Origin: Verrucomicrobiota bacterium
Lineage (GTDB): Bacteria; Verrucomicrobiota; Verrucomicrobiia; Chthoniobacterales; UBA6821
Direction of reading: 5' to 3'
Assembly (NCBI GenBank): GCA_008932965.1
Contig: WBXG01000001.1
Location: 25,975 to 57,974, forward strand
DNA: 32,000 nucleotides
This document shows positions 3,447 through 22,496 of the stretch, one piece after another (positions within the stretch are counted from its first letter, which is position 1; every line of letters starts with the position of its first letter). The position numbers and the translations under genes are program-made. The notes under the pieces were generated by a model, which was given only the letters and a program-made list of their open reading frames with translations, ran no database searches and had not been told where the DNA came from.

Positions 3447-5066
3447 TTATTGAACTATGGGTTTTTGTTTTTGACTAAGAAATGGGTAACTAGCTAGAGC
3501 ACTGAGTATTAACACAATTCCAAGAAAAGCTTCAAATGAATTCGTCCATAGAGTGTAGAGAAGTGCCATCATGCTCACAGCTGCAAAAAAAAGTTGAGGG
3601 AGTGGATAAAGTGGGGAACGAAAGATTGTTTCGCGAGTATGTGGGGTATTTTGGGAAATTACATTGTTCAACTCCTCATACTCTTGACACTCGATTTTGA
3701 TATTTTTTTGAGTTAGCCCAGATATTTCATAATGATCTGTTGTGAGGCGCTGTGAATGCTGATCTAGAAATGGAGAGCGATGATCTTCGACAACAATTGT
3801 ATCTTTTATATTACTCGAGGCAAAGTTTGAGCCTAATGCTGTATTCTTCACATTGTTGCAAGCCGCCGCAGGATCAGCATGAAATATGCGGTCTAGCTGC
3901 AAATAGCTTTTATTTTTATGATGAGAGGCTCGAGAAAAAGCACGCCGTCTCAAGACGATAACGCTTAAAACACCTAAGAGTTCGCACAAAATCAATGCAA
4001 ACTGAGTGCTCACTAAAATAGTTTTAAAGGAGGAGGTTAACAGTAATACAATCACTAAGATATATTGAAAAAGAGTAGCACGAAGCGGTATATTATTTGC
4101 AGAAGCACAACTAAACCAACGTAAGACTAAAAGATGTTTTCCCATTGCTTGCATGATTCGTGGACCTGTCCAGGTCATTGCACTAATGCTAGCAATGAGA
4201 CCAAAAGCAATAAGGGCAGACATGGCGCGACCTCCCTGTTGGCCTATAAGATGTGTTGCAACAACACGTCCAATATCTAAAACACCACGTAGTTCATTCT
4301 TAGGTGCGGAGATGAGAAAGATGGCATTCACAAGTAAGTAAACAATCATTACAAAAAGTGATCCAATAATGAGAGAGCGCCCTACGGTGCGTTGTGAGGT
4401 GGTAACATCATCAGCGATATAGGTGGATGCATTCCATCCAGAGTAGGAATAATAACAAAAGAGTAATGTTACTCCCGAAGTCGGCTGAAACAATTCCTGG
4501 AGCGCAAACTTAGTAGGAAGAAGCGTTTTCAAAGGCACTGATGCATACCGCATTCCCAAGTAGCAAATAAAGGCGACCAGCAGGAATTTTAATCCAGTAG
4601 TAATATCTTGAAAACTAGCACTAACCCCTAGGTCAATGAGATGTATTCCAGTTACTAGAGTCACTAACACTATTGAAGAAACCATCGGAGGTACGAAGGG
4701 AAACATCGCTTGAAAATAGGTACCGAATGCCATGCTTGCCAGAGCGATGGGTCCTACACACCCTGCTATTTGTGTGATAATTCCTGCCGCTGTGCCAATG
4801 GCTGGATGATAGATTTTTGTAAAATAATAATATTCACCGCCGGAATGGGGCATTTGTGCAGATAGCTCTGCATATGACAAAGCCCCACAAAGCGCTACAA
4901 GACCACCCAACGCCCATAGCAACAGAAGAGTAAAGCTACTTGAGATAGAAAGCAGCTGGATTCCGAGACTCGTATATATTCCGTTGCCAACCATGGTTGC
5001 GGCAACAAGAAAAACACAAGTAATAAGACCAACTTTGCGAATAGGTTGAGCGGGAGGTGAGGCCAT
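3447..5066 (-). CDS. APC-superfamily amino acid permease carrying an in-frame MITE-derived insertion in the TM10-TM11 loop
   Basis: 539-aa ORF with typical APC blocks (GNGIYTSLG, LCGALSYAELSAQMPHSGGEYYYF). A hydrophilic insert of about 115 aa sits between VLRRR and FRSPLYPLP, where APC permeases normally have a short loop. Sixty-one residues of it (LDRIFHADPAAAC...TTDHYEISGL) are encoded by repeat copy 3713-3896. Confidence 0.75.
   Translation of the reverse strand: MASPPAQPIRKVGLITCVFLVAATMVGNGIYTSLGIQLLSISSSFTLLLLWALGGLVALCGALSYAELSAQMPHSGGEYYYFTKIYHPAIGTAAGIITQIAGCVGPIALASMAFGTYFQAMFPFVPPMVSSIVLVTLVTGIHLIDLGVSASFQDITTGLKFLLVAFICYLGMRYASVPLKTLLPTKFALQELFQPTSGVTLLFCYYSYSGWNASTYIADDVTTSQRTVGRSLIIGSLFVMIVYLLVNAIFLISAPKNELRGVLDIGRVVATHLIGQQGGRAMSALIAFGLIASISAMTWTGPRIMQAMGKHLLVLRWFSCASANNIPLRATLFQYILVIVLLLTSSFKTILVSTQFALILCELLGVLSVIVLRRRAFSRASHHKNKSYLQLDRIFHADPAAACNNVKNTALGSNFASSNIKDTIVVEDHRSPFLDQHSQRLTTDHYEISGLTQKNIKIECQEYEELNNVISQNTPHTRETIFRSPLYPLPQLFFAAVSMMALLYTLWTNSFEAFLGIVLILSALASYPFLSQKQKPIVQ
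3713..3896 (-). mobile_element. MITE-like repeat, old diverged copy inside the permease CDS, open in the gene frame
   Basis: The termini TTAGCCCAGATATTTCATAATGATC and GATCAGCATGAAATATGCGGTCTAG match the family TIR. The interior keeps patches such as GAATGCTGATCTAGA versus GGATGCTGCGTTAGA. There is no stop codon in the permease reading frame. Confidence 0.7.
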
Positions 5067-5084: not shown

Positions 5085-5160
5085 GGGTAATGGGTAAAGT
5101 GTAAAGCGTAAAGGGTAATGGGTAATGGGTAATGGGTAATGGGTAATGGGTAATGGGTGA
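5085..5160. repeat. Heptanucleotide tandem repeat (GGGTAAT)n: six perfect units at 5113-5154 plus degenerate flanking units
   Basis: Read directly from the sequence: GGGTAAT GGGTAAA GTGTAAA GCGTAAA then 6x GGGTAAT then GGGTGA. It lies 19-95 nt upstream of the permease start codon (5066, minus strand), in the divergent region shared with pal. Confidence 0.95.
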
Positions 5161-5257
5161 CGAGTGCTCTCTCTTGCATTCGGTAAAGTTCCATTGCCCT
5201 CTTAAAGAAAAAAATTTTATTTGAAAAAAATTTGAAAACAAAGATCATAGAAGCTCT

Positions 5258-5867: not shown

Positions 5868-5999
5868 CTAGAGCGTCTAAAAAAAGTTAGTGCCGCTTAT
5901 TGCAGAGTCATTCTGGTGCTCACGTCCTCGAGTATCTCGTATACACTGCGGTCTTGGCACTTCGTTGCTAGCACTACAACTTTTTTTAATATGCTCTAG
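5868..5999. repeat. Long imperfect inverted repeat (about 22 bp of outer helix enclosing about 77 nt), bounded by CTAG on both sides
   Basis: CTAGAGC (5868-5874) pairs with GCTCTAG (5993-5999). AAAAAAAGTT (5879-5888) pairs with AACTTTTTTT (5978-5987). AGTGC (5889-5893) pairs with GCACT (5971-5975). It is present only once in this window. Confidence 0.6.
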
Positions 6000-6011
6000 T
6001 GCATTAAAACC

Positions 6012-8018
6012 ATGTTTTTTATGAATACCTCCAACAAGACTAAGTTATTCTCACTTATTCTAATCAGTGTCGTTATTGTGGCGAGTTGCTACTTGTTTTT
6101 CCATCAAGGGATTTCATTTTTCACGCCCAAAAACCATGCTCCAGTATTATCCCTAAAAACAAATCATTCTGGGTACCAGGAAAGTAACTCTCCTTCGATT
6201 ATTTCATCAGCACTCAATCATCAAGAGCCACGTCAGCTTCAGGTTCTTCCGTATCCTCCGGCTCCTTTGGATTCTCTATCAGAGCAAGAAGAGCTCGATT
6301 ATCCTGGTGCCGTTGTGGTTGAATTTGCTGAGGTTCAGGGGCCGTGGCCCAACCAAAAACAACGCTTAAGAATTTTACAAACGCATTTAAAATGCACTTA
6401 TGTAAGAACAGAAGAGGTTGTAGATGCTTCCTCCGGCAATCTTTTAGGGCGCTTGGAAATGGCAGCCAATCAACTCTTGGTGGTATTGCCAGAGGGAAAA
6501 GACCCTCAGCAGTTTTTAAAAGAGTATGGTCCACAAGCCCTCAGTATCACTCCAGTGAGTGAGCCTCTTCCAATTTACCAGATGACCTTATCTGATACTT
6601 CTCTTGCATCTCTTCCAGCAGGTATAGAACAAATAAAACAAGTGGAGAGTAGTGTTGGTTCCTCTGCAGAACCCAACTATATTGGTCATCTTAGTAAAAA
6701 ACCGCATAACGACGCCTACGCATTCCAATGGGGGCTTTGGAGAAATAGTGAAGAAGATCTGTATCCAGAATTTAGACCGCGCTATGAAAATTATTTTTAC
6801 TACAAAGATCATGGGCTCAAAGATCTTTTTGAAACTTCAGCTGATGATCAAAAAAAGAGAAACACTTCATTATTGATCTCCTCTTCTCTAAAAGAAGAAA
6901 ACCTAACGAATCTCTCCTTGGGAGGTTTTTATGATGCCGCTACCAACAACGAACAGGAAGATTTTTCCACAATACAGGGTATTAATGCGGAGGGGGGCTG
7001 GGATGTTCGTACTTCAGCCGCTTCTGTAGTTGTGGGGATTATTGATAGCGGCCTTCGCCTCACACATGAGAGTTTAAAGAATAATCTTTGGACGAATCCC
7101 AAAGGTAAAAAGCATTACATTCATGGCTTTAGCGGTCCAGATATGGAAGAAATGATCGCTGATGATGTAGGTCATGGAACCCATTGTGCTGGAATTATTG
7201 GAGGAGAAGCAAATGATTATTTAGGTGTTGCCGGTGTTGCCTGGCAGGTTCAACTCATGCCATGCAAATGTGCTAACAGTGAGGGAGTCATTATTGAGGA
7301 TTCGATATTGAGCGCCATTAATTTTGCAAAAAAAAATGGAGCCTCCATCCTAAATTGTAGTTTTGGTTGGAGTGGTTCTTCTGCCTCAATTGCAATGGAT
7401 GTGGTATTAAATGATCTTCGAAAAAAAGAAATTATTTTAGTAGCTGCAGCTGGTAACGACGGCCTTAATAATGATATCAGCTTATTTAAAACTTATCCTG
7501 CAAGTTACTCTTTAGAATTAGATAATATCGTTTCTGTAGCTGCAACGGATTATGCAATCAGAGATTCTTATGATGAATCGAGGGAGCAAGAAGGGCTTGC
7601 CTCCTTTTCGAACTATGGGGCAAATACTGTTTCTCTTGCTGCTCCAGGAACCTGCATTCTTTCGACTTATAATAAATCTGATAACTCTTATGCTTTCATG
7701 AGTGGAACATCTATGGCAGCTCCTTTTGTGACGGGTGCACTCGCTTTAATAAAAGCAGAATATCCCAATGCAAATTATCAAGATCTCATTCAACACGTGA
7801 TTAAAACAACAGATCCACTTCCTTCACTCGATCAAAAGATGATTGGAGGGCGTCTCAATTTAGCAAGAGCTCTCCATACCAAACCACTCATTGGTAACGC
7901 ATGGTATCTATCTACAAATTGTTTTGATAAAAAAACAAGTTTACCTATCTCAAATCGTGTATGGAACTTTCTCCATGGACCATGCAAAAGAAATGACTCT
8001 ATTTATCAATCTCTATGA
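6012..8018 (+). CDS. Membrane-anchored subtilisin-like serine protease (peptidase S8) with an N-terminal region of about 330 aa of unknown function
   Basis: The catalytic triad blocks are VVVGIIDSGL (Asp), DVGHGTHCAGIIGG (His) and MSGTSMAAPFVTGALAL (Ser). There is an N-terminal hydrophobic anchor, LFSLILISVVIVASCYLFF. Confidence 0.85.
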   Translation: MFFMNTSNKTKLFSLILISVVIVASCYLFFHQGISFFTPKNHAPVLSLKTNHSGYQESNSPSIISSALNHQEPRQLQVLPYPPAPLDSLSEQEELDYPGAVVVEFAEVQGPWPNQKQRLRILQTHLKCTYVRTEEVVDASSGNLLGRLEMAANQLLVVLPEGKDPQQFLKEYGPQALSITPVSEPLPIYQMTLSDTSLASLPAGIEQIKQVESSVGSSAEPNYIGHLSKKPHNDAYAFQWGLWRNSEEDLYPEFRPRYENYFYYKDHGLKDLFETSADDQKKRNTSLLISSSLKEENLTNLSLGGFYDAATNNEQEDFSTIQGINAEGGWDVRTSAASVVVGIIDSGLRLTHESLKNNLWTNPKGKKHYIHGFSGPDMEEMIADDVGHGTHCAGIIGGEANDYLGVAGVAWQVQLMPCKCANSEGVIIEDSILSAINFAKKNGASILNCSFGWSGSSASIAMDVVLNDLRKKEIILVAAAGNDGLNNDISLFKTYPASYSLELDNIVSVAATDYAIRDSYDESREQEGLASFSNYGANTVSLAAPGTCILSTYNKSDNSYAFMSGTSMAAPFVTGALALIKAEYPNANYQDLIQHVIKTTDPLPSLDQKMIGGRLNLARALHTKPLIGNAWYLSTNCFDKKTSLPISNRVWNFLHGPCKRNDSIYQSL

Positions 8019-8065
8019 TGGTTCAAAAGGAACTTTGAGGACTTCTCTCTAGCTTGGATATTTTC

Positions 8066-8815
8066 ATGCCACGCTTCTATCTTCCTCCACATCGATGGTT
8101 GTTATCAGAACCACAACTCGATGATCTTGATGCCCACCATGCTGCTCATGTCTTGCGTTGTGAAGTGGGTGATTCGATCGTCATTTTTGATGGCAAGGGG
8201 ACGGAGGCACTAGCCACAATTATCAATCTTAAAAAAAAAGGAGGACTCCAGGCGGTGCTCTCTGTTGGAGTTCCTAAAAAAACACTCCCATCAAGCTGCC
8301 CGATTACACTTGCTCAAGCTATTCCTAAAGCTAAGAACATGGATCTTATTATCCAAAAAGCAGTGGAACTTGGTGCCTCACGCGTTATTCCCCTTCTAAC
8401 AGAGCGAACAATCGTACGATGTGATAACCAGGATGATGCATTGCAAAAACAGGAGCGATGGAAACAGATCGCTATTGAGGCATGCAAGCAGTCTGGACAA
8501 AATTGGTTGCCTCAGGTAGAAAAGCCATGTTCACTTCCAGAATTTTTAAAGATGTTGGGTCAGCCTGATCATCTTTTGCTAATCGCTTGCCTAGAAAACA
8601 AAAAGCATTCGCTCAAAGAAATTCTAAAAATTTTTCCTGCTCCTCAAGCAGTGACTATCATGATTGGCCCCGAGGGAGATTTTACTCCCAAGGAATATGC
8701 AGCTGCAAAAGAGGTTGGGTTTCACTCCATAGACCTAGGTCCTATTATTTTGAGGGCAGAAACAGCTGCATTTTACTCTCTTAGCGTTTTGTCTCACGAG
8801 TTGAATCATCAATAA
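8066..8815 (+). CDS. rsmE: 16S rRNA (uracil1498-N3)-methyltransferase RsmE
   Basis: It has the MPRFYLPP start typical of RsmE and the C-terminal blocks IGPEGDFTPKE and LGPIILRAETAA. The ORF track begins at a TTG at 8054, but the ATG at 8066 fits the family N-terminus better. Confidence 0.8.
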   Translation: MPRFYLPPHRWLLSEPQLDDLDAHHAAHVLRCEVGDSIVIFDGKGTEALATIINLKKKGGLQAVLSVGVPKKTLPSSCPITLAQAIPKAKNMDLIIQKAVELGASRVIPLLTERTIVRCDNQDDALQKQERWKQIAIEACKQSGQNWLPQVEKPCSLPEFLKMLGQPDHLLLIACLENKKHSLKEILKIFPAPQAVTIMIGPEGDFTPKEYAAAKEVGFHSIDLGPIILRAETAAFYSLSVLSHELNHQ

Positions 8816-8834
8816 ATCTTTCTTAAATTGCACT

Positions 8835-9668
8835 ATGCACTTACATGACACTCAAAATCAAAAAGATGATCGTCAACTATCAATCGATCGTGTTGGTGTA
8901 AAAAATTTACGCTACCCGATTGAAATCCGAGATCGTCCTCCAGGAGCAGGTAAGGATGAGGCTCTGAGCAGTCAAAGTACAGTGGCTCTCATTCAGCTTA
9001 CCGTTGACTTGCCCCATCATTTTAAAGGAACACATATGAGTCGTTTTGTTGAGGTGCTCAATTCTCATGGCTCCATTCTCCATGTGCTCAATATTAGGGA
9101 TATTCTAGAACAGCTCCTCGTCAAGCTTGATTCAGAGCAGGCACATGTCGATTTTGAATTTCCTTTTTTTATCAAAAAGGCAGCCCCCGTAACACAAGCA
9201 ACTGCCTTGATTGATTACAATGTCTGCTTTAAAGCAACTTTAACAAAAAAAAATAGAGAAGCTCGAGCAGCTTTTGATTTTGTTGTTACTGTGGTAGTAC
9301 CGGTTACCACGCTCTGCCCTTGTTCCAAAGCCATCAGTCAGTCCGGGGCTCACAATCAACGAGGCCAGGTAACCTTTTCTGTGCGTTGTGCAAGGACGAT
9401 GTGGATTGAGGAGATGATTCGTCTGGTTGAGGATTCTGCAAGCTGCGAGCTTTATACGTTATTAAAACGTCCTGACGAAAAATTTGTGACAGAACATGCT
9501 TATGAAAATCCCGTTTTTGTAGAAGATCTTGTTCGTAATATTGCCCAACGAGCAGAAGCAAATTCCAATATTCTTTGGTACCGTATTGAAGCAGAAAATT
9601 TCGAATCTATTCACAATCACAATGCTTATGCCTTAATCGAGAAAAAAGGAGCAAGGCCTCATTCCTAA
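8835..9668 (+). CDS. folE2: GTP cyclohydrolase IB (FolE2/MptA family)
   Basis: The blocks are LSIDRVGVKNLRYPIEI, LCPCSKAISQSGAHNQRG and ESIHNHNAYA, as I remember them for COG1469 FolE2. The stop TAA (9666-9668) is the left flank of a MITE copy. Confidence 0.8.
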   Translation: MHLHDTQNQKDDRQLSIDRVGVKNLRYPIEIRDRPPGAGKDEALSSQSTVALIQLTVDLPHHFKGTHMSRFVEVLNSHGSILHVLNIRDILEQLLVKLDSEQAHVDFEFPFFIKKAAPVTQATALIDYNVCFKATLTKKNREARAAFDFVVTVVVPVTTLCPCSKAISQSGAHNQRGQVTFSVRCARTMWIEEMIRLVEDSASCELYTLLKRPDEKFVTEHAYENPVFVEDLVRNIAQRAEANSNILWYRIEAENFESIHNHNAYALIEKKGARPHS

Positions 9669-9825
9669 CCCAGAGATTTCTTGCTAATCGTCATGAGGAG
9701 GCCGCGAAGGCTGATAGAGCAAGGCTGTGTGAGAACATACTGCCCGAGGAAAACTTCGAGATCAACGCAGTAATGAGGAGCTTTCCACAAGCCGTAATAG
9801 ATTTAGTATGAAATATGCGGGTTAA
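9666..9825 (-). mobile_element. MITE-like repeat (subfamily 2, inverted relative to 21726-21912) filling the folE2-lptD convergent gap exactly
   Basis: The right part CTTCGAGATCAACGCAGTAATGAGGAGCTTTCCACAAGCCGTAATAGATTTAGTATGAAATATGCGGGTTAA is nearly identical to the reverse complement of the left arm of 21726-21912. The left terminus is degenerate (TAACCCAGAGATTTCTTGCTAATCG). Confidence 0.8.
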
Positions 9826-12347
9826 TTTCCAGGAATGAGTGGATTAGCACTAGAACCAGGAGAGGGATTAGCAGTAGGTGCATTGAGATGAAATGGCATT
9901 GTCACATCGGGTGCATCCTTGAGCGTGCAGACAATAACAGCACCATACTGGGTAAGGTTTCCTTGAGTCGAGGTTCCTTGGTTATTACGCACATCAGCAC
10001 CTAAAGAAACGATCCAGCTTGATAGATCTCGATTAATTAAATAGCGCTGATAGAGCAAGCTATTACCTGGGGCATATCCACTTGATGTCGTGCTAGTGGA
10101 GGTAGCGGATTCATTTAAGTTATAAAGTTGTGTAGCGCTCAGAGACCAGTGATCCGTCAATTTCCATTGAACAGAAACGGAGGGCTGGTTGCCACTGATG
10201 CCGTTGTAATTATTGATATAGGCACTTCCGACACATACCTGCAACCAGCGGGCTGGCATAATATCAAATTGCAGGTTCATTTCTGTAAAGCCTTGAGATG
10301 TCGTTGGCACCTGCGAATCAAGGCGAAGAGCTAGCCAACTAATCGGATTAAAAGTAAAACGATTATTAAAATTAGAAACAGAACCATTACGGTATGGGTC
10401 AACTCCATTGATATCGATGAAACTGTCAATATAAAACCAGTCATGGGTCCCTTCATCACGACGAGTTTGTAAACGGTTTCGAATACCCAGACGCATGATC
10501 GTCCATGTGTCGATTGTGTCAATTGCCGCAAACTGAGGAAAATTGAGTGGCTGCAGTTGGGTTGAACTTGGTTGATAGCCTGACTTGGTAAGATTATTAG
10601 CTCCATTAGGAATATAACGATCAAATTGAAAAACCTGGTTGACATTGGGCCCCCCCGCGTAAACGTACGAGAGGTTGCCATAGGGCTGGAAGACATGTCT
10701 TAATCCATCAAGTCCAAGAAGACGTGATTGCACTCCTTCAAAGTTACGAGAAATTTTAAAAGAGCCCTCTATCCCAGCATTAAAAATGGGACGGACTGTT
10801 GTTCCTGTCCAATTGAGATTATTAGCATGCGTGCTTGTGATCACACCATTAGTGGCGATTGGAGTGTTGGGGAAGGTGGTGATAGCCCCATTGGTGTTGA
10901 GAAAATCTCCACCATGATTGTAAGCAGTAACCCGCATTCCAATTTTAGGGATAAGTGAAAGCCATCCAAAGAGCGTTTGAGGTAGGCTTAATTGATGGAA
11001 TGTATCAAATCGGGTCGCATTATAACTAGAGGGTGTTTGGTAGTTAGGGTAATTTGTGGAGTTGATGGCAAAACTACGTTGTAATTGACCGATGGATGTC
11101 GTTCCATCGTAAAATAGAGGAAGTCCAAAGAGCGGCTCCTGATTAAAATCAAAGGCCAACTCAGGAAGTCGCTCTGTTGTTTCTTGAAAATTATTCATCT
11201 GCCACCGTGTTACTAGCGATATGGTGGAGTCATCATTCCTCTTGGTCAGTGTAATATTGTTGTCTGGTTGGGGGTTGTAGGCATTTTCAACAGGATAGTA
11301 ATTTTGCATGAACGTAAAATCGCTCAGCTTTGTTAAATCAGCCGTCGCATAAAGATCATCCTTGAGATAAAATTTTTGAGTGAAGGTGAGGCGATAACGT
11401 TGCTCAAAATTCCCCGAGGTAGGATTAACAATTCTTTGTTGGCCAGGTGCATTGTTGATGTTGGGATTGGCATCCCAAGCATAATAGGAGATAAACTGTC
11501 CGGTGTTTCGATCATTTTTACCAAATTTATCCTCTACATCTAATCCCATTGCATATCCACGAAGGGAGCGGTAGTCCGAATGAACTCGTGTGAGTAGATG
11601 ATCATCATTGCCGATGGCATACATGTAGGAGGAGAGGAGGTAGCCACCCCAAGTTGAATCATATCCAGGCTGAATCTGAATTCCCGATTGCTTGAGACTT
11701 GCGTACATATAAGGAACCCAAATGATAGGGACTTTTCCTACATAGATGGTCGTATTTAAAAAAATGACCCTATCCTTATTGTAGATACGCATGGCACGGG
11801 ATCGAATTCCCCAATCAGGACTTGAAGAGTCTGAGGTGGTCATGAAAGCATCACGCGCTCTAAATTCTTTTTGAGAAACGGAATTAAAACTTAAGGCACG
11901 GAATTTGAGTGGAGCAAAGTCCCCAGCGAATTCAAGACCACGAATTTGCTTTGTTTCCAGATTATAAAGGGCACGCTCTCCTGAAAAAAAGTTGGTATTG
12001 TTGTAAATACGGACATGTCCAATGAGCAAGATGTCACGTGTTTCTGGGTTATATTCTGCCCTGTCACAATAAATACTAATGCCGTTGTAATGGATTTGAA
12101 CATTTTCCTCGGCAAAGGCTACTCCGTTTTCAAAATGAGTATTTCCATCGGCAGTAATCTCCACGGCTTTGCCACTGAAGTTATTAGTCGGTGCCACCTC
12201 GGAACTCAACGGGGTGCTCACAAGAGCTTGCTGCATCGGATCTGCAGGTGCCTCTTGGGCAACTAATGGAACTCCCATGTTAATAGCACCAATGAAAAAA
12301 ATCATTTTCAGATGCCGTAATGGAGGAGTGAAAGTAAAGTTGGGCAC
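9822..12347 (-). CDS. lptD: LPS-assembly outer membrane protein LptD (OstA family)
   Basis: 841 aa with an N-terminal signal-like segment. It has an OstA-like N-domain (VEITADGNTHFENGVAFAEENVQIHYNGISIYCDRAEYNPETRDILLIGHVRIY) and a long C-terminus rich in aromatics and Gly, consistent with a beta-barrel. Confidence 0.7.
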   Translation of the reverse strand: MPNFTFTPPLRHLKMIFFIGAINMGVPLVAQEAPADPMQQALVSTPLSSEVAPTNNFSGKAVEITADGNTHFENGVAFAEENVQIHYNGISIYCDRAEYNPETRDILLIGHVRIYNNTNFFSGERALYNLETKQIRGLEFAGDFAPLKFRALSFNSVSQKEFRARDAFMTTSDSSSPDWGIRSRAMRIYNKDRVIFLNTTIYVGKVPIIWVPYMYASLKQSGIQIQPGYDSTWGGYLLSSYMYAIGNDDHLLTRVHSDYRSLRGYAMGLDVEDKFGKNDRNTGQFISYYAWDANPNINNAPGQQRIVNPTSGNFEQRYRLTFTQKFYLKDDLYATADLTKLSDFTFMQNYYPVENAYNPQPDNNITLTKRNDDSTISLVTRWQMNNFQETTERLPELAFDFNQEPLFGLPLFYDGTTSIGQLQRSFAINSTNYPNYQTPSSYNATRFDTFHQLSLPQTLFGWLSLIPKIGMRVTAYNHGGDFLNTNGAITTFPNTPIATNGVITSTHANNLNWTGTTVRPIFNAGIEGSFKISRNFEGVQSRLLGLDGLRHVFQPYGNLSYVYAGGPNVNQVFQFDRYIPNGANNLTKSGYQPSSTQLQPLNFPQFAAIDTIDTWTIMRLGIRNRLQTRRDEGTHDWFYIDSFIDINGVDPYRNGSVSNFNNRFTFNPISWLALRLDSQVPTTSQGFTEMNLQFDIMPARWLQVCVGSAYINNYNGISGNQPSVSVQWKLTDHWSLSATQLYNLNESATSTSTTSSGYAPGNSLLYQRYLINRDLSSWIVSLGADVRNNQGTSTQGNLTQYGAVIVCTLKDAPDVTMPFHLNAPTANPSPGSSANPLIPGN

Positions 12348-13957: not shown

Positions 13958-14844
13958 TGAAATTTTCTACGGAAGAGTAGTTGAGCTAAAATATTTGTTC
14001 CAGTTACCATGGCAACTAGGACAAGAGAGGCAGTCCAAGCCATTTGAACTTGGTAATGATAAGGAAGTGCTGAGAAATTATAAATTAAAACCGAAAGAGA
14101 AGCCGTTGGCTCCATGATGGAGCTTGCCCATTGTTGACTAAAGAGAGCGGTAAAAAGAACAGGTGCCGTTTCTCCCGCAGCACGAGCGACCGCAAGCATC
14201 ATTCCCATCATCATTGCTGGTAATGCCTCAGGTAAAACGATACGCCAGATTGTTTGAAAGGGAGTCGCCCCAAGTCCATAGGAAGCATCACGGTAGGAAG
14301 AAGGGACCCCCATCAGTGCCTGCTCCGAGGTTAAAAGAATGGTTGGCAACATTAAAATAGAAAGAGCAGCTCCTCCTGCTAAAGCCGAAAATTGCCCTGT
14401 ATGGAGAACGACTAAGGCAAAAGCAAAAGCACCACAAATAATAGAGGGGATTCCAGTAAGGAGTTTGGCAATGAAGCGAACTGTTGCTGTCAGAGAGGAG
14501 TGAGGGGCATATTCACTAATATAAATGGCACCTAAAATTCCAATAGGAGCTGAAAGCAGGGTAGCAATACCAACCATCGTTATGGTTCCAATTATAGCAT
14601 TGCCAAAACCACCACCGTGTAACCCAGGTGGTGGTGGGAGTTTTGTAAAGACTGAAAAATGCAATAAAGGAAGACCTTTATGAATCAGCAAATAAAGAAG
14701 AGAAAAAAGAGGAACTAAGGTGAAAAAAGAAAAAAGAACACACAGTGTTGTAAGGAGTTGATTGCTCCAGAGACGCAGGAAAGAGGTTTTTTTCTCATGG
14801 TTGGAGAAAAAATGGTGAGGTGGATTTGAATGGGGTATCATCAT
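13954..14844 (-). CDS. pstA: Phosphate ABC transporter permease PstA
   Basis: 296-aa polytopic ORF with the EAA-type loop [19 protein letters not shown]. It overlaps pstC by 4 nt. Confidence 0.85.
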
Positions 14845-16900: not shown

Positions 16901-16923
16901 TGTAACTGAAATATCCGGGTTAA
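16901..16923. mobile_element. Solo terminus of the MITE-like repeat in the pstS / GT2 divergent intergenic region
   Basis: TGTAACTGAAATATCCGGGTTAA matches the family right terminus CAGTATGAAATATCCGGGTTAA. No partner terminus is nearby. Confidence 0.6.
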
Positions 16924-16969: not shown

Positions 16970-17944
16970 ATGCTTGTCATTGGCAAGCTCCTGCTGCTAG
17001 TGGAGACGATGTCGATCAAAAATGTTGATCCCTTTAAAATGTTGACCCCTTTTTTTAGCATTATTACCCCTTCCTACAATCAAGGGAAATATCTCTCTGG
17101 ATGTCTGGATTCGATTCGACGTCAGACTAACGGCTCCTACGAACATATCGTGATCGATAATTGTTCTACCGATGAAACAAAAAACATTCTTGTGAATTAT
17201 GCACAAGATCCCAGAGTAAGGCTCCTTGTTGAATCAGATCATGGTCAGTCGAATGCCGTTAACAAAGGCTTTCGGATGGCTCGCGGCGAGGTTATTTGTT
17301 GGCTCAATAGCGATGATGCTTATTTTCCAGAGACCCTTGAAAAGCTGTATCATGCCTTCAAAAATCCTGCCTCTCAGGTGATTTTTGGAGATGTTCTTCA
17401 AGTTTCCTACAATGGGGAGCCTCCTCTCCGAGCAGCTGCACAATTCAAAGATCGTCGAGATTTTATTCGATGGTGGAGTGGTCGTATTAGGCTCCATCAG
17501 CCAGCTGTTTTTTTTCGAAGCTCGGTGCGTGAGAGAATTGGCTTTTTAAAGGAAGATCTCCATTATGCAATGGATTATGAATATTGGTGGCATATGTCAG
17601 AGTTCTATCATTTTCATTATTTAGGTGAGGAGCTTGCTATTCAACATCGACAACCCGATTCTAAGACGATCCAGGCGTGGTATTTAGTTCTTGAGGAACG
17701 GGAAAAGATTTTTTCTCCCTTTTATCCTCTGCTTGAGGAAAAAAAATCGGTCCTTGATCATGAACGCTCTGATTCGCTTGCGCATCATTTTTTAATACAA
17801 GCCTACGCGGTGGTGCAAAAGGATCGCCATCAGGCTTGGTTCTATTTTAGTAAAGCATTACGCTATGCTCCGTTGATATTTTTAAAGCCCTCCGCATTCG
17901 GATTGATCCGCCAATTATTTTTTTATGACCGGGATTCTTCTTAG
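16970..17944 (+). CDS. Family 2 glycosyltransferase (start uncertain: ATG at 16970, 17009 or 17039)
   Basis: The GT2 N-terminal blocks are FSIITPSYNQGKYLSGCLDSIRRQT, HIVIDNCSTDET and WLNSDD. The ATG at 17039 (MLTPFFSIITPSYN) fits the usual GT2 N-terminus best. Confidence 0.8.
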   Translation: MLVIGKLLLLVETMSIKNVDPFKMLTPFFSIITPSYNQGKYLSGCLDSIRRQTNGSYEHIVIDNCSTDETKNILVNYAQDPRVRLLVESDHGQSNAVNKGFRMARGEVICWLNSDDAYFPETLEKLYHAFKNPASQVIFGDVLQVSYNGEPPLRAAAQFKDRRDFIRWWSGRIRLHQPAVFFRSSVRERIGFLKEDLHYAMDYEYWWHMSEFYHFHYLGEELAIQHRQPDSKTIQAWYLVLEEREKIFSPFYPLLEEKKSVLDHERSDSLAHHFLIQAYAVVQKDRHQAWFYFSKALRYAPLIFLKPSAFGLIRQLFFYDRDSS

Positions 17945-18854
17945 TACTTTTGAGCCTTATGAACAAGTAGCCCATTTTACGGAGCAGCGGATCAAAAAAC
18001 ATTGGGCAGCACATCCTCCCCTTTTTTTTTCTGGTTTAGTGCGTGATCAGGATCTTTATTTCAATTTTAAAAGTGATTCACGAAATTGGATGGGAGTGAC
18101 CTTAGAGGCGGTCGAAGAAATGCTCTATCGTCGATTTACCCATGTATATTTAATCCTTGATGATCATCCTCCAGTAGGAGCGTGTGATGATATTTTTTTA
18201 AATGAGACCTTGCCCGCTCTTGCAGTAAAACTCGATGCCGTCACTATAGGACTTCTCGGTTATGGGCAGCATCGAGACCCTCACGGAGTCATTCTAGAGA
18301 AAGAAAATGGCTTCCTAGAACAATGTTCTTCGACAGCTCCATGGAAGTTTTCACTGCATCCTGGGTTGTGGAAGCTTGAAGCATTGCAACTCATTTTAGA
18401 AGAACGACTGAATCAATATGGTGAGGGGAAACGAACTGCATGGAATTTTGAGCGTCATCAGGATCAGCCTGAGGATCCCATTTTAAAAACTCTGTTACAT
18501 CGATGCTTTCGTATTTCTGGAGAACATTTTTTAAAAGAACCCAAAAAAATGAAGTTTGAAATAATAAAAGAGGGTATCGAGCGTTTTGGAGTTGATCTAA
18601 TGCTCTATCTAACAAAAAAAAGGGGAGGTGCTCCAGCTCGCCTGGAGCTAGAAAAAAAAGAGTTGTGGCGTTATGGTCACTACTTAGGTCCTTATCCTAT
18701 TTTTTGGAGCGGTCTCATGCAACAAGGAAGACCCCATAGGGGGTTTGAAAGGTGGCTTTTATCTTGCGGAAATCGAGAGCTTCAAAAGGAATGGAAAAAT
18801 TTAAAATCTCTTTTGGAGTCAAATTCATCTCTTAACCCGGATATTTCACACTAA
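17925..18854 (+). CDS. Hypothetical protein, overlapping the GT2 gene by 20 nt; its last 7 codons and stop are encoded by a MITE copy
   Basis: 309-aa ORF with protein-like composition and no motif that I can assign firmly. LILDDHPP could be a DXD-like motif. The C-terminus ...SSLNPDISH* is read from TTAACCCGGATATTTCACACTAA. Confidence 0.55.
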   Translation: MTGILLSTFEPYEQVAHFTEQRIKKHWAAHPPLFFSGLVRDQDLYFNFKSDSRNWMGVTLEAVEEMLYRRFTHVYLILDDHPPVGACDDIFLNETLPALAVKLDAVTIGLLGYGQHRDPHGVILEKENGFLEQCSSTAPWKFSLHPGLWKLEALQLILEERLNQYGEGKRTAWNFERHQDQPEDPILKTLLHRCFRISGEHFLKEPKKMKFEIIKEGIERFGVDLMLYLTKKRGGAPARLELEKKELWRYGHYLGPYPIFWSGLMQQGRPHRGFERWLLSCGNRELQKEWKNLKSLLESNSSLNPDISH

Positions 18855-19016
18855 TCTACTGCGGAGGCCGGAAAGCAAGGATGGATGCTGCGTTAGACTC
18901 ACATTTTGATTTGGACAGTATGTACACATACAGCCCGGCATCAAAATGCTCGTCTGCCTTACCCCATCAGCCTTCGCGGTCTCCTCGTCACGATCAGTAT
19001 GAAATATGCGGGTTAA
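18832..19016 (+). mobile_element. MITE-like repeat, full copy (subfamily 1), flanked by TTAA/TTAA
   Basis: The termini are TTAACCCGGATATTTCACACTAATC and GATCAGTATGAAATATGCGGGTTAA. It is near-identical to 333-517. Confidence 0.9.
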
Positions 19017-19115
19017 AGCCAGGGCAGTCTCCCCCGCGGTCTCCCGACCGCCGGTGGTGTCTGCATCAGGATTCGCGGCGCCTCGCGACGAATCAGTATG
19101 AAATATGCGGGTTAA
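19017..19115 (+). mobile_element. Half copy of the MITE-like repeat (right arm only, GC-rich left part), in tandem with the preceding copy
   Basis: It ends in CGCGACGAATCAGTATGAAATATGCGGGTTAA, which matches the family right arm. It has no left TIR. Confidence 0.65.
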
Positions 19116-21664: not shown

Positions 21665-21676
21665 ATATGGGTCGCT

Positions 21677-22119
21677 ATGAATGTGAAAACTACATTAGAA
21701 CTTCCAGCTCCACTTCTTCATCAGGTTAACCCGGATATTTCACACTAAATCTATTACGGCTTGTGGAAAGCTCCTCATTACTGTGTTGGTCTCGAATTGT
21801 GATTTGGGCGGTATGTACTCATACAGCCCGGCATCACAATCCTTCGCCCGCCTTGTACTAATAAGCTTTGCACGGCGCCTCATGACGATTCAGTATGAAA
21901 TATCCGGGTTAAGACTGCGGCGTTGCAGTGTCATACGACCATGAAAGAATTTTTTGTGAGGCCTTGAAAGAAAAATTAGCTAGAACTTCACGAGTTAATA
22001 CTGTGCGACATCGAACTGTCATTCCTCCACCTCCAAAGATTCCACGCAAGGAGCTCGAAGCCATTAAAAGAAAAATTTTAGATGCTGCTGCTGAAATTCA
22101 TCCTGACGATTGGAAATGA
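21677..22119 (+). pseudogene. vapB: VapB-type antitoxin gene split by a MITE insertion and carrying a 1-nt frameshift in a T6 run; a C-terminal 63-codon ORF (21928-22119, GTG start) remains
   Basis: The N-terminal piece MNVKTTLELPAPLLHQV runs into the repeat and stops (..NPDISH*). Removing 21726-21912 minus one TTAA (183 nt) joins it in frame to KTAALQCHTTMKEFF. Adding one T to the run at 21950-21955 continues into CEALKEKLARTS...DDWK*. The stop overlaps the vapC ATG (ATGA). Confidence 0.55.
21726..21912 (+). mobile_element. MITE-like repeat, full copy (subfamily 2), flanked by TTAA/TTAA, inserted in vapB
   Basis: The termini are TTAACCCGGATATTTCACACTAAATC and GATTCAGTATGAAATATCCGGGTTAA. It shares the core ATGTACTCATACAGCCCGGCATCACAAT with subfamily 1. 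Confidence 0.9.
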
Positions 22120-22496
22120 TATTAGATACTAATGCTATTTCAGCGATGTCTCGTGAGGACAGAGAAATTGAAATTGTTGTACAAGAATTAGTGCAACCAT
22201 ATCTTTCGGTTCCAGTTTTGGCAGAGTATCACTATGGATTGATCAATTCACGGCATCAAAAAGTATTAGAAGCATGGCTTGACGAATTGAAATCATCATG
22301 GCCTGTATTGATACTCGATGTCATGACGGTGTATTTCTATGCAGAGATAAGAAATAAATTAAAAAAGAAAGGAAACATGATTCCTGTTAATGATCTTTGG
22401 ATTTCTGCACTCGCTGTTCAACATAGATTGCCCATCCTTTCTGAAGATCGTCATTTCGATCGTATCGATGGTGTTGAACGGATAGGATGGAAATAG
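22116..22496 (+). CDS. vapC: PIN-domain ribonuclease toxin VapC
   Basis: It has the MILDTNAIS start with the conserved acidic residue, and a C-terminal SEDRHFDRI block. There is a 4-nt ATGA overlap with the upstream antitoxin ORF. The ORF track uses a TTG at 22110. Confidence 0.8.
   Translation: MILDTNAISAMSREDREIEIVVQELVQPYLSVPVLAEYHYGLINSRHQKVLEAWLDELKSSWPVLILDVMTVYFYAEIRNKLKKKGNMIPVNDLWISALAVQHRLPILSEDRHFDRIDGVERIGWK

Follow-up and report, generated by a model that had tools for sequence, protein, structure and literature searches.

The window analyzed here is a 32-kb stretch (G+C content 42.7%) of the Verrucomicrobiota contig WBXG01000001.1. It contains six complete copies (153-179 nt) and three fragments of one repeat family, a transposable element of the miniature inverted-repeat kind (MITE). 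The initial annotation had noticed that ends of this element lie on the stop codons of genes, an observation that is confirmed here. We propose that target specificity together with purifying selection very probably explains this coincidence; the MITE would be mobilized by an IS1380-family transposase, and no function at the stops is required. The central case is the gap between the convergent genes folE2 and lptD, which one copy fills from stop to stop:

8835-9668, plus strand: folE2, GTP cyclohydrolase FolE2 (Pfam GCHY-1, 2e-92; NCBIfam FolE2 equivalog, 271 bits)
9665-9668, no strand: left 4-bp target copy CTAA with the folE2 stop inside (from the sequence and the 4-bp duplication rule)
9669-9821, no strand: core of the MITE, 153 nt, a decayed chimeric copy with a 26-nt internal deletion
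9822-9825, no strand: right 4-bp target copy TTAA with the lptD stop inside (reverse complement of 9822-9824)
9822-12347, minus strand: lptD-like gene for outer-membrane lipopolysaccharide assembly, 841 aa (homologues with PF04453 and the names LptD/OstA)

The folE2 gene ends with ...CAT TCC TAA, its stop TAA occupying positions 9666-9668, and the element end CCCAGAGATTTC is directly next to it. On the opposite side, lptD ends with ...GGA AAT TAA and the other element end CCCGCATATTTCA follows directly. Both stops had been read as the flanks of the copy and the element as the entire intergenic region; this is indeed the case, since all 153 nt from 9669 to 9821 belong to the element. Only the limits of the copy, given as 9666-9825, had to be refined to the core and the two target copies listed above. 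Concerning the name of the second gene, the open reading frame (ORF) 9822-12347 gave no Pfam match of its own; a weak CT351/LptA-like hit was also obtained. It has hundreds of homologues, the best one with 93% identity, and because these carry PF04453 or the LptD name, we consider the designation lptD acceptable.

The repeat was initially described as a MITE, and it has the properties of one: it is short and dispersed, with inverted ends, target duplications, and both filled and empty sites. Read inward, every element end in the window is TA-R-CCCGGATATTTCA. The termini CCCGGATATTTCAYAC stand in inverted orientation and thus form terminal inverted repeats, the whole element being palindromic. 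A scan for the terminal motif, made with one genome per species, revealed at least dozens of further copies in related genomes. Among the matches listed, these are concentrated in Verrucomicrobiota metagenome-assembled genomes (MAGs), and many form inverted pairs 115-240 nt apart. The window copies are 90-97% identical to copies in the Chthoniobacterales MAG JAIPKF01 and the Spartobacteria MAG CAIWMF01, which we count in favor of recent mobility. Neighboring proteins likewise bear the name Chthoniobacterales, and the window is therefore assigned to a low-GC representative of this group.

The proposed YTAR target with a 4-bp duplication was likewise borne out. When the complete elements of the window and of Verrucomicrobiota loci are taken together, the flanking 4-mers are identical on both sides in 26 of 38 pairs (CTAG in 9, TTAA in 8, CTAA in 7 and TTAG in 2). 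The outer bases, next to the central TA, change together on the two flanks, and therefore 4 bp are duplicated and not 2. An IS630/Tc1-mariner-type element, which would duplicate only the 2-bp TA, was ruled out by these co-varying outer bases, CTAA being found with CTAA and TTAG with TTAG. An IS5-family derivative, with its 4-bp YTAR target, was also considered and is not supported, since IS1380-family transposases are what the only full-length elements with such ends encode. One of them lies at L073:433-2187 (L numbers designate loci or contigs of other genomes and P numbers homologous proteins, both compared with the window). This 1755-bp element has the ends CCCGGATATTTCACAC, its terminal 16 nt are those of the MITE, and it carries CTAG on both sides. 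Its product is a 489-aa DDE transposase (PF13701, 1e-127; NCBIfam IS1380, NF033539, 347 bits for a cut-off of 180). A second, similar full-length element is present in L086, and IS1380 is the sole NCBIfam match of the transposase from full-length elements with these ends. Because its 16-nt termini are common to the autonomous element of L073, the repeat is, as judged from its ends, a MITE that descends from a YTAR-targeting insertion sequence of the IS1380 family.

The remaining elements of the window, and the other genes that they abut, are the following:

265-312, no strand: old decayed fragment of one MITE end, common to L204-L206
333-517, no strand: MITE copy, intact, core at 337-513 between two CTAA target copies (333-336, 514-517); empty site in L204, L205 and L206
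514-1968, minus strand: POT/PTR2 family transporter gene (Pfam PTR2, 1e-45; C-terminus matching that of L204)
3713-3896, no strand: MITE copy, core 3717-3892, in frame within the permease ORF 3447-5066 (minus strand)
16907-16923, no strand: solitary MITE end, 13-nt terminal motif and TTAA, in a divergent intergenic region
18832-19016, no strand: MITE copy, intact, core at 18836-19012 between two TTAA flanks
19017-19115, no strand: partial older copy with a single end, TTAA at 19112-19115
21726-21912, no strand: MITE copy, intact, core at 21730-21908 between two TTAA flanks, splitting a vapB-like antitoxin gene
30358-31722, plus strand: accC, biotin carboxylase, stop at 31720-31722 (Pfam; PDB alignment of residues 1-448 of 454)
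31719-31902, no strand: MITE copy, core 31723-31898, left flank ATAG with the accC stop inside, right flank TTAA

The stop of the POT gene, the reverse complement of 514-516, adjoins the end of copy 333-517 within its CTAA flank, as had been noted. The claim that insertion regenerates the stop could be examined here by comparing filled and empty sites. In L204-L206, which are close relatives as judged from the neighboring permease gene (protein 98% identical), the site is empty and ...ATTACATTTAG runs directly into GGACTATAAAAG (in summary form, ...ACATTTAG into GGACT). In the window it is filled: ...ACCTTTAG is followed by the element and then by TTAG GGACTATAAAAG, so that TTAG stands at either end. 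No other case is as clear, and from the alignment of these sites it is best described as a simple insertion into T+TAG with 4 bp duplicated, the stop being regenerated as claimed. The loop of the permease provides a further filled/empty pair. The reciprocal situation is observed at the CTAG stop of PhoU, which has an element directly next to it in L202 and L209 and unique sequence in the window and L204.

At the other stops, the comparison with relatives points in the same direction. The C-terminus of LptD (...PGN, then stop) and the position of its stop codon are conserved in five relatives, four of which (L195, L198, L202 and L203) have no element there. In the window, the folE2 gene ends 13 codons past the conserved ALIEKK, and it does the same in L202 and L209, which are free of the element. 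The abutting stops are thus native wherever this could be tested, namely for lptD, folE2 and POT. For accC, the product is full length when compared with solved biotin carboxylases (to residue 448 of 454), and its only relative found, L210, is near-identical and filled, so that no empty-site comparator was available. The coincidence of the accC stop with the element end was correctly described, whereas its flank does not conform to YTAR and reads ATAG. The synteny around lptD and folE2 was obtained via LptD and permease homologues. A metagenome scan with folE2 gave only relatives of 58-77% identity, none of them with lptD convergent downstream of folE2 and thus no empty site; in a few, a distant homologue of lptD lies upstream, encoded by the same strand as folE2.

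The stop-to-stop copy itself has a more complex history than one insertion. L202 and L209, whose LptD is 93% identical, retain a 112-nt element-free spacer between the same lptD and folE2 stops. Both stops lie there within TTAG in the same orientation, which places a 4-bp direct repeat around the spacer. One insertion by itself could not occupy a gap of 112 nt from stop to stop, and therefore spacer loss or inter-copy recombination is also needed. In the outgroup L200 (85%), a 388-nt composite element directly follows the lptD stop, and 56 nt of spacer come next. In L204, the closest relative, the arrangement is also stop-to-stop; the copy there, 178 nt long and of the 21727 subfamily, is intact. 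Over the 78 nt on the lptD side the window copy matches it with two differences; beyond, it is divergent and has its 26-nt deletion. It is a chimera: about 100 nt on the lptD side are of the 21727 type, and about 55 nt on the folE2 side correspond to a decayed end of the 334 subfamily type. At least two events are needed, insertion at one or both stops and loss of the spacer. The element would first have inserted at the stop of lptD, of folE2 or of both, each of which is within TTAG in relatives. The spacer of about 112 nt would then have been lost, through a deletion between the two TTAG repeats or through recombination of two nearby copies, and an exchange with another copy in one lineage is also assumed. 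This is the order of events that we infer from the relatives; the 3' end of the L209 POT gene gives a direct example of a MITE accompanied by loss of adjacent DNA.

Several other features of this gap were considered. The L200 element was not retained as an orthologue of the window copy, the shared motif CCTCGGGCA being a subfamily feature and the identity only 69%. This 388-nt element (L200:6467-6854) has normal MITE ends around a middle of about 230 nt that is unrelated and richer in G+C; this middle may be a nested insertion or an internal module of another kind. An 8-nt match, CTCATTCC, found at both gene ends was treated as chance; it is absent in L202. The 112-nt spacer of L202 gave no significant match to any MITE copy when considered as a decayed MITE or mobile element, and no significant fold (z +0.58). 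It contains a motif, AGTCAAATTACTTTGAAAT (spacer at L202:3770-3881), that is partly palindromic with a downstream arm and absent from the window. The same motif occurs three times in the Spartobacteria contig L095 (3102-3166, 5492-5512 and 7186-7238) and may represent another small repeat family.

How element ends come to lie on stops can be understood from the target itself. The MITE, a non-autonomous element of about 177 nt that consists of one long palindrome, would be mobilized in trans by an IS1380-family DDE transposase of the window's genome. This enzyme would cut at YTAR (CTAG, CTAA, TTAG or TTAA) and duplicate those 4 bases. In every YTAR, either strand contains TAA or TAG if it is read towards the element; half of the TAA and TAG stops are preceded by a pyrimidine, so that the stops themselves are target sites. 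An insertion at such a stop would leave the gene with an intact Y-TAR stop and the element straight after it. As it disrupts nothing, it would probably be neutral and therefore survive, and insertions in coding or 5' regulatory DNA would mostly be purged. With this target specificity and purifying selection in a compact genome, the coincidence of ends and stops would therefore be expected.

We thus asked how often ends would fall on stops given the YTAR sites available, with the elements masked. In the window, 7-9 YTAR sites are in stop context versus about 45-57 in other intergenic DNA, giving a chance of 11-17% that a tolerated insertion lies on a stop. Three of 6-9 insertions do so (P = 0.02-0.19). 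Over all loci, 7 of 26 tolerated insertions are on stops for 3.98 expected (P = 0.064), and in high-GC loci 2 for 2.16 expected. The idea that ends lie nearer to stops than YTAR availability predicts therefore holds only as a modest, about twofold excess, and a strong excess was not found; at most it is two- to three-fold. Selection against 5' regulatory insertions would yield such an excess without any function at stops. In other genomes, all eight of the ORFs tested that end on the terminal TAR of an element contain Pfam domains, for example Sua5 (its C-terminal domain complete), DnaJ, a helicase and an Rce1-like protein. The stop-to-stop arrangement recurs among them in L091, where an element with a perfect CTAA duplication separates QueG from an M14 peptidase; this insertion site is the only YTAR in 8 kb of DNA with 66% G+C.

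Some of the data weigh against this explanation. There is no IS1380 transposase gene within the 32-kb window, and the matching full-length element comes from a distant, high-GC Verrucomicrobiae genome, so that a mobilizing partner in the window's own lineage is putative. The flanks are unequal at the 9666 copy (CTAA/TTAA) and at the accC copy (ATAG/TTAA), where a 4-bp duplication would imply later point changes. The ancestral lptD-folE2 gap is compatible either with loss of a spacer or with a history in which both stops overlapped in a single TTAG. Finally, the availability estimate rests on crude gene calls (longest-ORF greedy), and low-GC loci have 5 insertions on stops for 1.82 expected (P = 0.023), which makes an extra preference or selection for gene ends possible in the low-GC relatives.

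The overlap history just mentioned deserves consideration. The stops of lptD and folE2 could once have overlapped in a single TTAG that one insertion split, the spacer of L202 and L209 being a later gain. This is precisely the pattern of L091, where both of the convergent genes are real, and the L202/L209 spacer is bracketed by a TTAG direct repeat in the same orientation and contains a motif that is repeated three times in L095. However, the repeated motif is limited to the inner part of the spacer, which in L202 lacks terminal inverted repeats and does not match the MITE, and the outgroup L200 also has a spacer, of 56 nt, beyond its own element. The flanks differ between the window and L204 (TTAA and TTAG), and the two-subfamily chimera in the window fits recombination between two copies. 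We regard the overlap history as possible, though somewhat less probable than insertion with spacer loss. One could also assume that the abutting stops are not native and that the element was inserted inside the 3' coding end, where a terminal TAR in frame, one case in three, would supply the stop. ORF 17925-18854 and the vapB piece, which run on to NPDISH and a stop, and the L209 POT protein, whose last 10 residues were replaced by LTHIFHTGSS and a stop, show that element-encoded ends do occur. Nevertheless, the stops of lptD, folE2 and POT are at the same codon in element-free relatives, and AccC could be aligned to residue 448 of 454. Moreover, among termini abutting ORFs of at least 150 codons, the frame that places the stop at the terminus (frame 0) is over-represented, with 25 of 40 against one third (P = 1.5e-4). 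Truncation is thus a very improbable origin for these stops.

The other alternative is that the element is kept or recruited at gene ends, its RNA hairpin acting as a terminator, a 3' stabilizer of the mRNA or a processing site; a bidirectional terminator or stabilizer had been suggested initially. Intact copies are far more stable than shuffled sequence: as RNA, copy 333-517 gives a whole-length hairpin (z -9.0 and -5.8), as does the L204 copy (z -9.3 and -5.0), and the folding models indicate that transcripts of intact copies would certainly contain long hairpins, as those of Correia elements (PMC2229807) and ERICs do. Besides, the element replaces the whole spacer between convergent genes in the window and L204, the stop excess in low-GC loci goes in the same direction, and the Correia, ERIC and REP elements are precedents. 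On the other hand, the very copy at issue, 9666-9825, has lost its hairpin and folds no better than shuffles (z -1.05 and +0.14). No intrinsic terminator (G+C-rich stem-loop and U-run) was found on either strand in 9400-10100, and no Rfam match at the gathering score in the whole window. Strand bias is also absent: at the 13 sites with an intact copy abutting a gene end, the more stable RNA strand is sense in 6 and antisense in 7. Copies are moreover found within genes (vapB, permease) and in 5' regions, and the overall count of 7 on stops for 3.98 expected is not significant. The predicted folds and these counts thus speak against a terminator or stabilizer at copy 9666-9825 and are neutral for the family. 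A functional role at gene ends seems unlikely to us. The same holds for its strongest form, in which a YTAR-strict, piggyBac-like MITE would have stops as its main safe harbor throughout Verrucomicrobiota and its 85-bp hairpins would have been co-opted as gene-end elements replacing convergent spacers and serving as terminators, processing sites or 3' protectors; we find it doubtful. If true, such a co-option would explain the approximately 2-3-fold stop excess of low-GC loci and the complete replacement of the lptD-folE2 spacer.

Outside gene ends, copies within genes illustrate other outcomes of insertion. In the APC-family amino-acid permease (ORF 3447-5066, minus strand), the 176-nt MITE and the 4-bp duplication add 180 nt in frame. 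The resulting insert of 60 residues (LDRIFHADPAA...DHYEISG) lies in the loop ahead of the last two transmembrane helices, which are conserved. Homologues mostly have 443 aa and no insert; P0122 (L209) has a long loop without a MITE, that is an empty site, and P0121 (98% identity) keeps the insert with an open reading frame. ORF 17925-18854 extends six codons into copy 18832-19016 and the vapB-like fragment likewise six codons into copy 21726-21912, both with the NPDISH tail that had been pointed out. P0241 from a Chthoniobacterales MAG, 87% identical to the product of ORF 17925-18854, also ends with ..SSLNPDIS, and therefore this insertion is older and persistent. Other homologues of this product end 3-15 residues past a conserved LK motif. 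In the more distant relative L209, a MITE (14515-14709) is inserted at a TTAA 10 codons ahead of the native POT stop; the protein with its element-encoded end has the same total length as the native one. About 100 nt of downstream DNA are missing or replaced there, and a second, nested element end is present.

The vapB-like antitoxin gene (21676-22119) is split by its MITE and has an apparent frameshift near 21950-21965. The downstream PIN toxin ORF 22110-22496 is intact, and a toxin left without its antitoxin would be unusual in an operon that is not silent. No match was obtained when the PIN protein was looked up by its exact sequence. Just upstream of the permease start, at positions 5085-5165 of the window, 7-nt units follow one another (GGGTAAT with its variants; the repeat finder gave a spacing of 14 nt), and in L209 the equivalent stretch was taken by the gene caller for an extension of the N-terminus (..HYPLPITHYPL..). 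At L081:958-1136 lies a complete copy of 179 nt between two TTAA flanks, on a contig labeled Gammaproteobacteria bacterium RIFCSPHIGHO2_02_FULL_42_13 (40% G+C); the family has crossed phyla unless this bin is wrongly assigned. L001, a short-read contig of Logan SRR5818191 identical to window positions 5970-9772, stops about 100 nt inside the MITE; elements of this family break the assembly of these genomes.

For annotation, the family accounts for such broken contigs, for the NPDISH tails and for the 60-residue insert of the transporter, as well as for many apparent "zero-length" 3' intergenic regions in Verrucomicrobiota. For transposon biology, it offers a natural set of filled and empty sites for a strict 4-bp YTAR target of IS1380 type, next to the TTAA of piggyBac. 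The view of gene ends is unchanged, the coincidence being largely what target sequence and purifying selection predict.

Compared with the IS1380 family (PF13701/NF033539), the MITE shares its terminal 16 nt with the L073 element and, like it, has a 4-bp duplication. In contrast, the window copies are of about 177 nt, encode no transposase and are palindromic throughout, and there is no autonomous copy in the window. To our knowledge, a strict YTAR target has not been described for the IS1380 family. A parallel can also be drawn with the eukaryotic piggyBac, which likewise duplicates 4 bp with a central TA and whose TTAA is among the four targets of the window family. The YTAR target is nevertheless broader, and seamless excision is a feature of piggyBac. 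IS1380 transposases have been treated as distant prokaryotic relatives of piggyBac (PMC10140906), and we take this relationship, by analogy, as a lead for the window family.

The closest resemblance in behavior is to ERIC of Yersinia, Correia/NEMIS of Neisseria and MIRU of Mycobacterium. These are also small elements with inverted repeats, a TA-containing target and a long hairpin; they abut or overlap stop codons and are often co-transcribed at the 3' ends of genes. ERICs that overlap stop codons or lie beside them were reportedly described by De Gregorio et al. (2005). The ends of MIRU extend into neighboring genes (PMC3184786), fusions to ORFs are known for Correia elements and ERICs, and Correia elements undergo RNase III processing (PMC2229807). 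MITEs overlapping stops or fused to ORFs are thus already described, and the repeat of the window is a new MITE family. It differs from these elements by another parent transposase family, by a 4-bp YTAR duplication instead of a 2-bp TA duplication and by its Verrucomicrobiota host, and its effect at the RNA level is a predicted hairpin only. Finally, copy 3713-3896, which lies in frame in the permease and leaves the ORF open, resembles the Rickettsia palindromic elements and other translated MITEs, the difference being that it is a single in-frame case in the window, with a predicted protein product.

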